The notes under the pieces were generated by a model. That model saw only the letters and a list, made by a program, of their open reading frames with translations, was not told the DNA's origin and searched no databases. A stretch of DNA of 64,000 nt, taken from the NCBI GenBank assembly GCA_051294375.1, contig JBJCIZ010000744.1, positions 1,664,262 to 1,728,261 on the forward strand, in the 5' to 3' direction. Made by a program: the position numbers and the translations under genes. Below are positions 9,887 to 27,800 of the stretch, in pieces (positions within the stretch are counted from its first letter, which is position 1; each line of letters begins with the position of its first letter). Origin of the DNA: Paraspadella gotoi. Lineage: Eukaryota > Animalia > Chaetognatha.

Positions 9887-12800
9887 ATGAACAACGAATT
9901 GGCGCAACTCTACTCGCGCCACAATTTGGCGCAGCGCGAGTGGGCGTGGCAATCGTGGCAGACCCTGACGATGACGCTGTCTACGACGACGCCCTTAAAG
10001 TCGGTGATCGACTTTGGCTGCGGAACTGGAGAGATCACGTGGGATTTGACGGAATGGGTGACGAAATTGAACGAGGAGAGGGGATTTAAAGGGTGAATCT
10101 CTCTCTCTCTCTCTCACACACACAAAACATTACAACACCGGAAAGCAATAATTTAATCCAAAAAACACATCCGACCTTTTTCAGCCAGGTCCCGACCGTC
10201 GTAGGAATGGACGTCTCGGAAGAAATGATCGCCTATTGTCGTGACGCCGCCGCCGCCGCCGCCGCCTCCAATCCTTCCCCTTCCTTCGTTGTGGCGGACT
10301 TCTCCGACGCCTCCTCCTTTCCCGCCTCATGGTCGACCGCCTTCGATCTCCTCGTCAGCTTCACCGCGACTCACTGGGCCAAGGATCAGGCGGTCGTTTT
10401 GTCCAACGTCGCCGCCTGCCTCAAGACGGGCGCGTGGTGCCTGATTCTTATGCCCGTCGTCGCGCCGCCGGCGTTTTTGGAAGGTAAGGAATCATGATCG
10501 ACGATTTATCCAGTAAGTTTTACGATTATATCGTCTTTATTGTGATTTAAATGCTATTTGCATACTACGATGTGCAAATTGTGCGTAACGGTTGTCGCTC
10601 GGGCTCAAGATGAGCTTGTCTTTAATCTTAAATTTAAATGTTTAACAGACAATTGGTAAGATTAATACACGGTTTCATTATTTATTTTGTTTGTGGTAAG
10701 GAGTGAAATGCCGATTTAATCAAGAGTTTTTAGTATTTACGTATATTTTAAGCAACTGATTATGAGAAGTTCATAAATGATTGTTACTGAAAAATTCGGC
10801 GTAAAGAAACTTTAATCCAACTCATACGTATTTTATTTTGTCATTATTACTAATTAATTTAACGTTTTTAATGAGATTAAAAACTAAGTTGATGAAAGAC
10901 TCTTCAGTCGAGAATTGACGAGTTTAAATGCGGAAATGGCGGCAAACGGACCGACCGACCGTTAGACGGACTTACGACGTCAGACTCAATCCTTTATTCG
11001 CCTCAATCGCCAAATAGTGGTTGACCCACATCCTGATCTTCGTCCGTCCGTACATCAATCTGTATTTGTCCGTCGTTCCGACAGAAGACGATCGTCGCAT
11101 CAAAAATCTCCCTTCGCTAAATATTAAAGTCTCGGAATCTTTAATTAATTGATCAATTAATTAATTAATTAAAATCGTCTTTCGGATTCGCGAATTTCCC
11201 TCGATTCCGTGTTTTTTTTTTAATTTAGAAGTAAAATGAAGAGCGAGGCCGACGTCTACGAGAGACTTGGACAGACATTCTCCGCGCTGCCGTCGCATTG
11301 CGAATCGTGGACGAAGAATTCCCAGAAATGGGATCTCAATTTGGAGTGAGTTGTTTGAATGGCGGGGCGGAACGATGCAAATGTAGGAACGATGCAAATA
11401 GACGGTACTAAATTTGATATTAATAATCAATATTAGTAATACAAAAGTTTGCTGAGAATGGAAATTTTCATCGAGACTTAGAGATTACATGCGAGCGTCA
11501 AATATCGGTAGAATTAACACTTTATTGGTAAATGAATACAATTAAATTTTATCGGCAATATGCAAATATAATTTTGGTTCATCCCTCTCATCTTTTCCAC
11601 CTCCAGATCCCTCATCAACCTCCTCGAGCAGATGTCTTGCTGCGACGACCCCGATGACGAAATCCCCGCCGACGACCCTTTGATCTCCGACTTTCCCCAA
11701 CTGCTCGTCCAGTTACGTCTCAAGCACGCCGACTCCGCCCGCCGCCTCCTCTCCGAATCGCGCCTCATCCACTCGACGATGGACTCCCTTCGATCGAAAC
11801 TCGACGCCGCCTTCAAGAACGCCGAGTCAGCCTTTTACGAAGTCTGCTCGGCGAGCGAGGACGACGATTCCGCAGTCGCCGCTTTTCTCGGCCGCGCGAC
11901 CGCCACGCGCCCCTCGCCGGCGTTCATGCTGTCGGAACTCAAGGCGGTGACGGACTCGTTCTTCGCCGAAACGGCTTGTCAAGAGAGGCTCCTCGAGGGT
12001 CTGGATTGGGAGAGTCCCGCAAAGAGTTTTAAATTCGCCAAATCGGCGACGCCCGTGGAAAGGAAGAGCGTCGAGAGAACGAGGGTCGCCTTGTTGTACG
12101 TCCAGTTTTTCTTGAAGGAAAAGTGACCCTTTTGTTTTGGGTCATCGAGTTTTACGCAATTAACTTTTATGTGTTATGTTGTATTATATGTTATTTGTTA
12201 TACATACGTATGTTTAGGCGTTGTTTTATTTGTCGCTCGTTCGCTCCCACTCTTACTTGAAAGTTTGAGTCCTCGTCGTCGAGAAACTCATTTCTAAGAA
12301 ATCCTTTCGTTCGACGCCGCGAAATCGGGGAACCTCGTAGTAATCTTCATCGTCGCGCGCGTAAAAAGTTTTGTTGAAAAAACTTCCGATATGCAAATTG
12401 ATTTCTTGGAAGTTCCAAAGATAAAAAATGAAAAGTTGAGAAAAATTACCGAAAATGGGATAAATGTATGGATGACGTCCATCGGGCGTATGATTGAATA
12501 TTGTAATCATTATCGCTAAAATGGTTGATATTCTTACAAATCGTTTGTGAAATTCAAACTGTTATTTCTTATTAAATTGGACAAAGTTTCCAATATGGCC
12601 TCCGCTATGTCCTCCGCCTCCGCTCAACTCTTTTCTGACTTCTGGGCGTGGCGTCTGGACGAGAGTCCCGAGTTCGCCTCCATGAGCGGAAGTCATCCGA
12701 CTTTCGACGGGCGACTCGACTCTTGGGATCTCGACGCCTTCGAACGCCGCTCCGCCGCGGCTGCCGCGTTTCTCCGCCGCGCGGAGGATCTTTTGTCGAA

Positions 12801-24800: not shown

Positions 24801-27800
24801 TTGAATGTTGAATGTTGAGTAGAATGCCTCGAGATCCCTCGGCAAATCCCGGCCCTCAACCACTAAGTCGGTTTGACGATTCGCGAAGAGGACGACCAAT
24901 CACATCGCAAGGCTGACCAAGTCCGTCTATGGGTCCATTCCATTAATGATTAGTAGATTGATTTATTCAATCACTCAATAGATTGAGGTCATCATTGTTT
25001 AAAATAAATATTACAATAATCGATTGATCATTTAACGATGATTATTAACTGTTAACTGTTGATTGACCCAAGATTTTTAAACCCAAACCAGGGCCACAAC
25101 TTTGCCGTTTGGTGCGTTCGCTTCGCCCCCTGCGGCCACTACTTCGCCAGCGGCGGTCAAGACCGCACGGCCCGGTTGTGGTCGACCGACCATCCCCAAC
25201 CCCTTCGTCTCTTCGCCGGCCACATGTCCGACGTGGACGTCGTCGTCTTCCACCCCAACTGCAATTACGTCGCCTCCGGATCCTCGGATCGAACCGTCCG
25301 TCTCTGGGACGTCGCCAACGGCCTCTGCGTCCGCAACTTTACCGGACACAAGTCCCCCATCACGGCTCTTTGCTTCGCCCCGTCGGGCCGACATTTAGCC
25401 TCGGCCGGGGCGGACGGGGTGGTGACCCTTTGGAACGTGGCCAACGGGCATCCTCAAGGCTGGTTCGAGAACGGAGAAGAGGAGAACGAGAAAAGCGGCC
25501 GACGACGCGGGCCGGTTTACGCCCTCGCCTTCAGCCGCGACGGCACGGCTTTAGCCAGCGGCGGACTCGACAAAACCGTGTCTCTGTGGAACGCGGAGCG
25601 GCTCTGCGCCGACGGGGAGGACGAAGGCGGCGGGGAAGCTCAGCAGCCGCATTTCGACGCCGCCGCGGATTATTCGCTGGGGAGATTCAAGACGAAGAAG
25701 ACGACCGTGCTGGGGTTGCACTTTACCAGGAGGAATTTGCTGTTGGCCTTCGGACCTTTTTCTGGATGAGTGGAGTTGGGAGGGAAGGATAGTAATTTGA
25801 TATTAATATTGATTTGATATTAATATTAATTTGATATTAATATTAATTTGATATTAATATTAATTTGATATTAATATTAATTTGATATTAATATTGATTT
25901 GATATTAATATTAATTTGATATTAATATTAGTTTGATATTGTTCAGTTTAATTCCGATTTTAAAACATCCATGTCCTGTTTTATTTTTTATAGCTGTCGT
26001 GTCATATTTTGTTTTTGTTTATTTATTGTCTTCTTTCTCTTTAGTTTCTTTGAAAATTCAAATTAAAACATTTGCTGGAAAAGGAAAACAAAAACTTATC
26101 GTCAAATTTATAATTTATCATTTGACCTGAATTCCTCCGTCGTCTGACTTATGATTCTCAATTACAATATTTTTCCAGAAAAATATTTTTTTCGGATACT
26201 CGCGCTCATAAAATATTATAAAATATCATCGAGAATTGGGTCAATTTTTGCGATATGTTTCGGGATTTATTTCTCCACGTATTTAAATATTTCCCCCTAC
26301 GAGAAAGTTCAGTGCATCATTAACAACAAAACGAAGTAAAATATTAAAATGTTTTCATTAAATCGGCATTTCACTCATCGTAGAGGAAGTAAAGTTTGAT
26401 ACGAATCCATATGAGAATCAACTATTTAATTAATATTAATTAATATTAATTATATTATTGAACGTTGACCGGTCAAGTTCGAAAAATAATTTCCGCTTCT
26501 CCATTTAATCTCATCAAACTTCCTCTTTCTTTCCCAAACCAGCCGGCGCCACGGTCCGCAAGAAGTGGGCGCGCCATCTAGAGGGCGTCGTTCTTTCCTG
26601 GCGCCACACTCCCGGCTGGGAGAAGTATGACGCATGGCGTCGTCCGGATCCCGGCGCCGGTTACGCCGCTTTGGCCGAGAACGCCGGATTGAGAGTCGCG
26701 AGATCAAAGGTGGAGGAGAGAGAGGAAGGGATTGGGTTTTGAACGGATAATTTTTATATTGGTTATACAAATTTAATAATCAAAGTAATAATTCATTTCA
26801 TAGATAAGCTGACTTTGGACAGGCTTTGGTGGTTTTAGGCCTCCATCACTCTTACAAGATAACAGATAACCGAGCAGGTCCTTGCAAGCTTGCAATGAAG
26901 ACTCTCTCACAGTCTTGTTTATTCACTCCCAGAATACCTACAATGAAGTTGTATAATATTTTAAAGAATGTTTCACCACTCCCTCAAGTATTAGCTCGGA
27001 GAATACTATATTAGTTTTATTACATTATATGAAATTAGTTACTTAAACGACCTGTATTTCCATCTTCTATGCTTCACCCTCTCTTTCCTTTTCTTCCTCT
27101 TTCTGAAGCGCTTCTTAACGCGCGACCTAGATAATCCGAGATCTATCGCAAATAACAAGTCTAAGTTTCATCTCTATTCTTCTAGATGCCCTAATTTGTG
27201 CCCTAATTAATTATTGAATTCAAATCCGTGTTCAACTACTCTCAAACAAGTATCTTTGGAAACCAAACAGTTCTAACATGTAAAACACCTTAACTATAAC
27301 CTTATATTCTTAGAACCATGTAATAAAGCAGAAATAGTAACCACATTTGAGATAATACAATTTCCAATCTCAGGTACAAATATTCATGGTAAGCAATGTA
27401 GAGGAGCAAGGGCAAGGTAGGAGGTGGTGTTCAAGGAGAGGAGTGTGTGAGTTAAAACTACAAAAAATAGACAATGCTAAATTAGTATTAAATAAACTTT
27501 AAACCTTAAACTTATAAGTAACATATATAACCTAAGTACAATTCAATATAAATCCAATGTAAACTAACCTTCAATTTGGGTTCCAGAATAGAGAATAAAA
27601 CATTGGCAGTAAAGTAGTACAAAACATTATTTAAAGTATTTTTCTTTTCATTTTTACACACGTGTTTGAATTGAGAGTAAAAGACTTGTGAAAGATTAAA
27701 ACTGAAACACGCTCGTTCGTTAGCTCTCGCAACAGCTGATCGCGGGGAAGAGTGAATTCTGATATTCAACGGAAACAAATGATTCTATCGATCTAAACGA

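Follow-up and report, generated by a model that had tools for sequence, protein, structure and literature searches.

A candidate RNA duplex at the ends of a 16-kb intron enclosing five genes in the chaetognath Paraspadella gotoi

Long-range RNA duplexes acting in splicing and genes nested in parallel within a host gene (PMC8527503) are each already known. In Drosophila Nmnat, a stem in intron 4 favours the distal acceptor, as was shown with disrupting and compensating mutations (Raker et al. 2009, PMC2724269). In mite sDscam, the pairing of a docking site with selectors supports cis- and trans-splicing (PMC9258826). For the human pairs of conserved complementary regions (PCCRs), it has been put forward as a hypothesis that RNA structure can rescue a pre-mRNA after cleavage (Kalmykova 2021, PMC8052449), and in the split introns of Giardia, the halves of which pair with each other, the pairing has been proposed to let the intron survive a break in the loop (Hudson 2019, PMC6679479). 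The present work deals with a window of 64,000 nucleotides (nt) from the chaetognath Paraspadella gotoi (the whole stretch of DNA analysed; contig JBJCIZ010000744.1, positions 1,664,262 to 1,728,261), in which a gene for a methyltransferase resembling juvenile hormone acid O-methyltransferase (JHAMT-like) is split by an intron that encloses five genes on the same strand. A 20-nt complementary pair is located at the two ends of this intron, and it is quite possible, although the preference is a tentative one, that it forms a long-range RNA duplex by which the whole nested block is looped out of a single read-through transcript.

The locus resembles Nmnat (PMC2724269) in that intronic boxes flank a proximal acceptor leading to an alternative terminal unit. 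The Nmnat system is described with a minigene of about 1.2 kb, a single looped terminal exon and boxes that lie at most 150 nt from the splice sites and are conserved across species, whereas here the loop measures 15.6 kb (more than ten times that span), contains five whole genes, and its arms are known from the sequence of one species. With the also invertebrate sDscam (PMC9258826) it shares a pairing that brings a very distant donor and acceptor closer together, to within about 120 nt in the mite; the mite gene is reported to have competing selectors and many paralogous cassettes, whereas here a single pair would skip unrelated genes. As in the PCCRs (PMC8052449), the duplex lies near the intron ends and encloses the 3' and 5' ends of other transcripts, and the energy of its core falls in the third of the four PCCR energy classes, but that catalogue, as described, consists of conserved regions and extends up to 10 kb. 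Gene halves located far apart are also known from Giardia (PMC6679479), Caenorhabditis elegans eri-6/7 (PMC7603289, PMC9258826) and mosquito bursicon (10.1101/050625), but these halves are reported as separate pre-mRNAs from distant loci or other chromosome arms. As the exons of the present gene are colinear on one strand, Nmnat and sDscam are closer analogues than Giardia and eri-6/7. The initial annotation of this DNA had proposed an RNA bridge by reference to the last two systems; the split gene, and a predicted duplex that is beyond chance and specific to exon 3, speak for its interpretation, while the analogies chosen were less close.

Several genes in one intron, many of which share the orientation of the host and often have transposons at their flanks, have been described in the ctenophore Hormiphora (PMC8527503), where the splicing of a host intron across the splice sites and 3' ends of nested genes is an open question; the difference is that a candidate cis element is in view here. 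What appears to be new is a candidate duplex, unique in the window, that brackets five whole same-strand genes. Searches of the open-licence PMC and bioRxiv literature brought up no duplex that spans several protein-coding genes of one strand, which is limited evidence of absence. Besides, the locus makes the hypothesis that structure rescues a cleaved intron (PMC8052449) directly testable. It offers a single short candidate element and measurable competing junctions (11229 versus 26543); in addition, an intact paralog can serve as control, and there are relatives with an apparently short intron.

The split methyltransferase gene

Contigs from 4 of the 11 listed sequencing runs (X1, X5, X8 and X9) cover the stretch 9700-15800 of the window. 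X9 was treated as RNA on the basis of its four GT..AG joins, the type of the run being itself a guess, X1 is possibly the source of the window, and X5 is an independent sample; the X8 contigs leave a coverage gap at 10678-10807. The features of the gene and of its large intron are the following:

9887-10092, plus strand: exon 1, with the ATG at 9887 and a DFGCGTG motif for binding S-adenosylmethionine (SAM); joined to exon 2 in X9 contig 25 and located by tblastn of relatives
10185-10483, plus strand: exon 2, Pfam Methyltransf_11 (E-value 1.8e-10), donor GT at 10484, phase 1
10484-26542, plus strand: intron 2, of 16,059 nt, enclosing five same-strand genes
10701-10738, plus strand: arm 1, a perfect 20-nt core (10701-10720) followed by an imperfect inward extension
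26339-26376, plus strand: arm 2, the perfect core (26357-26376) plus the extension
26377-26542, plus strand: predicted acceptor-side fold (26382-26400 with 26513-26526), which would bring arm 2 closer to the acceptor
26543-26709, plus strand: exon 3, 51% identical to residues 189-243 of the relative P0200, with no start codon of its own
27972-28196, plus strand: exon 4, stop included, 39% identical to residues 244-316 of P0200
37231-39443, plus strand: intact paralog used as control, with a short intron 2 and no long inverted pair at the intron ends

Joined together, the four exons give an open frame of 298 amino acids with GT..AG ends and matching phases, interrupted by neither stop nor frameshift. 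The frame of exon 3 contains no methionine, and lacking a start codon the 3' half would be of no use unless joined. Four full-length relatives (P0200, P0208, P0213 and P0214) match exons 1, 2, 3 and 4 in order, with identities of 48, 47, 48 and 40%, respectively; their alignments are gapless at the boundary between exons 2 and 3, and the genomic open reading frames (ORFs) of the relatives break at the same two exon boundaries, including the position of intron 2. For exons 1, 2 and 3 of one relative (P0198, P0124 and P0199), the contig on record is 2163 nt long in each case and is taken as one and the same because of this equal size; a short intron is therefore inferred in that relative, and the split in P. 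gotoi would be derived. Introns 1 and 2 of the intact paralog agree in position and phase with those of the split gene, the second being 288 nt long, and exon 3 of the paralog aligns with 26545-26709 with a score of 96, which was reached in none of 5000 shuffles. The paralog is the more diverged copy, with identities to the relatives of 34-41% versus 40-48% for the split gene.

Regarding the function, P0200 matches JHAMT structures (9un4, E-value 5e-10) and JHAMT-like Atlas clusters, and among the relatives that bear a name, a JHAMT-like protein of a nemertean is the nearest. The methyltransferase domain and the full-length colinear similarity are those of a class I SAM methyltransferase. The family name JHAMT-like is thus given by similarity, and juvenile hormone acid or farnesoic acid would be putative substrates.

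From these sequence comparisons, it is well supported that one gene is split around five same-strand genes, as the initial annotation had assumed; the open frame, the colinear relatives and the paralog with the same intron all bear this out. Leftover exons from a tandem duplication, whether a further exon 3 following exon 2 or a further pair of exons 1-2 ahead of exon 3, were looked for and not found. A word-indexed search with exon 2 gave no matches. Misassembly on the 5' side was ruled out by an X5 contig that spans 10133-12441, crossing the first nested gene (C1orf109-like), and by the RNA joint from exon 2 to this gene.

The complementary pair at the ends of intron 2

Comparison of the window with itself revealed that the two cores, 10701-10720 and 26357-26376, are exact reverse complements of each other. 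The perfect 20-bp pair reported in the initial annotation is therefore real, and so is its imperfect inward continuation, the ungapped inverted match between 10701-10738 and 26339-26376 amounting to 33 of 38 bases. Arm 1 starts 217 nt past the donor (10484) and arm 2 ends 166 nt ahead of the acceptor (26542), in agreement with the distances of about 220 and 165 nt given earlier. Neither arm had been seen elsewhere in the window, and this holds even when up to three mismatches are allowed (2 sites in 64 kb, 0.01 expected).

The longest inverted match in dinucleotide shuffles of 10484-11228 against 25950-26542 was 17 nt, none of the 2000 shuffles reaching 20, and it was 18 when the entire window was resampled 150 times with a local Markov model, again with none reaching 20. 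Among the 153 pairs of intergenic gaps, the longest inverted match is that of the pair bearing the arms, the runners-up being 17-nt A/T-rich runs. The other exact inverted matches of at least 20 nt in the window that are not of low complexity belong to a dispersed repeat family, to an inverted-ended element in an intron of TAF5 or to local hairpins, and the arms resemble no repeat of the window. Rfam gave no matches, and the 20-mer had no exact match in viral contigs. The pair could still be a coincidence of another kind, for instance two opposed protein-binding sites, which are known to yield false pairs (PMC8052449), but chance as such is excluded by the shuffles; coincidence, taken together with the dying gene considered below, is regarded as very unlikely.

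The predicted core duplex, of -29.3 kcal/mol, consists of 20 perfect base pairs and so exceeds the 9 nt of continuous complementarity with GC pairs expected of Nmnat-type boxes or PCCRs. The best duplex between 60-nt segments of both ends reaches -46.4 kcal/mol versus -27.7 +/- 2.3 (minimum -36.7) in 60 shuffles, which were scanned with a coarser step that slightly favours the real sequence; in this comparison with shuffled controls, proposed in the initial annotation, the real pair is far beyond chance. When the region of arm 1 was paired with the 250 nt before exon 3 the energy was -46.2, and with all 11 other acceptor regions it ranged from -19.2 to -28.7, so that among the 12 acceptor regions compared the modelled duplex is specific to the acceptor of exon 3. 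The net binding of the intron ends, once their local folds have been opened, is predicted to be about -29 to -35 kcal/mol.

Local folds are predicted to reduce the path between donor and acceptor, otherwise 383 nt long, to some tens of steps. The acceptor-side hairpin noticed earlier, 26382-26400 with 26513-26526, is present, with 14 base pairs and a 5-nt bulge; its duplex energy (-19.7 versus -11.5 +/- 2.5) is modestly beyond chance, 11 of 2000 shuffles being equally stable, and the segment 26377-26542 folds more stably than 300 of 300 shuffles, partly through AT palindromes. A further 8-mer pair that had been pointed out, 10565-72 with 26376-83, does exist but is unused in the predicted dimer, where 10555-10577 folds as a local hairpin, and it is accordingly given no weight.

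The pair could also be a DNA scar without any role in RNA, either the terminal inverted repeat left by a transposon-mediated move or a breakpoint duplication from the rearrangement that brought the five-gene block into intron 2, with exons 2 and 3, if they are joined at all, joined independently of it. This explanation is rather unlikely, yet it is the main rival of the RNA duplex. It would place the arms in the same two gaps, and it agrees with a split that looks derived (the relative with exons 1-3 on 2163 nt). However, a target-site duplication is absent, the outer ends sharing at most 3 nt at off-register offsets and the inner ends no match of at least 4 nt, even if old duplications can decay. 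The arms match no repeat of the window, and there are no extra contigs at arm 1: the DNA contigs of X1 and X5 cross exon 2 and arm 1 unbroken at single-contig depth (31 and 21.3, respectively), which places arm 1 outside any longer repeat family, in a test that would miss copies of the bare 20-mer (the own contig of arm 2 is absent there too). For comparison, a true repeat at 15716 draws a depth in the thousands; a CT repeat is located near 15.8 kb. No transposase Pfam match was found among the ORFs scanned, although non-autonomous elements carry none anyway. The mismatches of the extension include two G-U and no A-C pairs, counts that are too small to separate an RNA from a DNA origin. DNA origin and RNA use are not mutually exclusive; the arms perhaps started out as a hairpin or a small element with inverted ends, within the formerly short intron where the block landed.

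Exits from exon 2 and the genes between the arms

The genes enclosed by intron 2 are:

11229-12126, plus strand: nested gene 1, C1orf109-like; Pfam CA109-like with E-value 0.002 (below cut-off); joints 10483>11229 and 11345>11607 in X9
12595-14564, plus strand: nested gene 2, DUF885 copy a; Pfam DUF885, E-value 3e-119
14788-18086, plus strand: nested gene 3, DUF885 copy b; Pfam DUF885, E-value 8e-61; spliced joint near 15075>15455 in X9
18722-19042, plus strand: nested gene 4, a CEBPZOS-like small protein; top ESM Atlas match 'protein CEBPZOS' with a score of 0.96, no Pfam match
19477-25769, plus strand: nested gene 5, TAF5 (NTD2 and WD40); Pfam TFIID_NTD2 (E-value 1e-33) and WD40

C1orf109 is described by Pfam as a ribosome-biogenesis factor, and TAF5 is essential; a search with the WD40 part of TAF5 returned generic WD40 proteins only.

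In X9, the contig of exons 1-2 (contig 25, depth 70.2) stops exactly at 10483, and a GT..AG join seen in this one run leads from 10483 to 11229 with a depth of 29.3. The first exon of the C1orf109-like gene begins at this competing proximal acceptor (AG 11227-11228) and has its ATG at 11236. As in Nmnat, a proximal acceptor located between the arms is thus in use, and no other spliced exit from exon 2 was seen in the RNA contigs. Since the donor of exon 2 uses this nearer acceptor, exon 3 can be reached only by skipping competitors, and a bridge becomes the more needed. In the resulting isoform the methyltransferase frame stops after 172 codons, overlapping the start of the C1orf109-like frame. 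A second X9 contig (10454-10805, depth 8.2) contains unspliced intron, includes arm 1 and shows no variant letters. The depths of both exits (29.3 and 8.2) against 70.2 leave room for a third exit outside 9700-15800; this is a weak hint, the contig depths being coarse and 108 further loose ends being present.

Another X9 contig runs unbroken over 11607-14743, from the C1orf109-like gene through DUF885a. The signal AATAAA is absent from the six intergenic gaps within intron 2 (0 versus 5.0 expected, P about 0.01), whereas 12 gaps outside intron 2 contain 17 (16.8 expected). Both the absence of AATAAA and the two-gene contig fit read-through, although a contig over two genes is not proof of one transcript.

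According to the favoured looping-out in cis, transcription would run through the entire five-gene block, and the donor of exon 2 would sometimes wait instead of using 11229. Arm 1 would then pair with arm 2, the local folds on either side would draw donor and acceptor together, and exon 2 would be spliced to exon 3, 16 kb off, to produce the enzyme of 298 amino acids. Since splicing to 11229 excises arm 1, the two outcomes would be mutually exclusive for each transcript, which would give either the full methyltransferase or a stub of 172 codons followed by the C1orf109-like protein. It may also be, although this is unlikely, that the maturation of the nested mRNAs, those of TAF5 and others, cuts intron 2 and that the duplex holds the surviving ends so that exons 2 and 3 join across the break. 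If this were true, one polycistronic transcript would give rise to the inner mRNAs and to a sixth one made from its two ends, the locus would represent an animal intermediate between cis-splicing and split introns of the Giardia type, and there would be a general way in which a host gene can tolerate genes nested in it on the same strand.

The same arms could act between two molecules, as in sDscam or the split introns of Giardia (PMC6679479), with exons 3-4 carried by an RNA of their own that is started or released downstream of TAF5 and upstream of arm 2, the arms tethering both RNAs. The predicted net energy would be ample for that, complementary stretches are found in both intron halves, and the stop of TAF5 is separated from arm 2 by 570 nt. 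Besides, all the nested genes, TAF5 included, need mRNA ends of their own, which would cut any through-transcript. Related to this, RNA pairing is reported to drive both cis- and trans-splicing at sDscam (PMC9258826). Nevertheless, the exons are colinear on one strand and cis-splicing is possible, and the lack of AATAAA in the gaps within intron 2 also speaks against separate transcripts; trans-splicing is considered quite unlikely. As for a dying split gene, recently broken by the block and no longer joined, its role having passed to the paralog, it would be in keeping with 11229 being the one spliced exit observed for exon 2, with the somewhat lower relative conservation of exons 3-4 and with the presence of an intact paralog 9 kb downstream. 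On the other hand, the frames are open, the GT..AG ends canonical and the phases matching across both halves, and it is the paralog that has diverged more.

Several observations weigh against the looping-out of the nested genes. The junction between exons 2 and 3 was not seen in the contigs, which cover 9700-15800, exon 3 lying beyond, and no full-length protein of this species was present among the 5 matches to P0200 or the 73 matches to exon 2. No sign of conservation or covariation of the arms emerged: the four runs show no variant letters over 9700-15800, arm 1 included, and intron DNA of a relative was looked for and not found, all 12 metagenome loci obtained out of 227 pattern matches being distant (24-33%). 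Scaled to the identity between orthologs, the conservation of exons 3 and 4 is 0.67 and 0.72, versus 0.86 and 0.81 for exons 1 and 2, which could reflect relaxed selection on the 3' half. AATAAA does occur within the nested genes, nine times in eight introns of the nested genes and once more at the end of the DUF885b coding sequence. The arms lie, at 217 and 166 nt, outside the 150-nt limit of the Nmnat boxes (PMC2724269). Most of the pyrimidine tract that precedes exon 3 is paired in the predicted dimer (mean unpaired 0.27 versus 0.58 alone), and this, if real, would hinder the use of the acceptor; because the model pairs so much of the tract, its fine structure is not to be trusted. Finally, inverted-ended elements are common in the window, and 3 of 15 control introns have inverted ends of 16-59 nt that stem from mobile elements, which is why a DNA scar keeps the weight given to it above.

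Some further observations concern the transcripts and the nested genes. By its length, the X9 contig of exons 1-2 begins at the acceptor 9514/9515, about 370 nt upstream of the ATG, so the 5' end of the transcript would itself be spliced to an unseen piece. The stop and start codons at 11229-11239 overlap as ATGA, as in termination-reinitiation, and this could be due to chance. The predicted intron of DUF885a (12839-13089, with a weak donor) is retained in the X9 contig 11607-14743, whereas that of DUF885b is removed; the processing of DUF885a may be poor, or the gene may serve as a 3' extension. A small inverted-ended element is located at 17098-17461 in a DUF885b intron, and an intron of TAF5 contains a 2.3-kb element (21639-23970) with inverted ends of about 260 nt, 93-95% alike, and an ORF of 676 codons without Pfam match.

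Arrangement and other elements of the window

Chaetognaths are described as animals with operons (PMC12460157, PMC2481426). The recognised genes of the window (PRMT, RTC/RCL1-like, two methyltransferases, the five nested genes, an EcKL cluster, a coiled-coil gene and SID-1) are all placed head to tail on the plus strand, and many have an acceptor-like site just before the start codon, an arrangement that appears operon-like. SID-1, the JHAMT-like and the EcKL genes point by themselves to an animal as the source of the window. Among 100 ORFs of at least 85 codons on the minus strand, only one had a Pfam match, which was below the cut-off, and eight ORFs of the window had no exact-sequence match in the protein collection.

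A motif that can be called octamer-like occurs 17 times versus 3.1 expected, with a maximum of 8 in 200 block shuffles, and often within a longer shared context; its sites include 271, 1017, 10556, 11375, 11392, 11560, 12391, 14569, 16728, 34035, 56561 and 58109. The EcKL cluster is formed by at least six tandem ecdysteroid-kinase-like (EcKL/APH) genes at 29337-36378 and 47942-50722, several of which are intronless (three were scanned), and there is a broken copy near 46473. The dispersed repeat family, with units of about 250 nt in both orientations, is mostly intronic and has copies at 4070-4322, 7104-7318, 26745-26990 (just past exon 3), 38118-38366, 38830-39110, 57598-57762 and 62778-62922. 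A near-perfect palindrome of 171 nt is located at 46087-46257.

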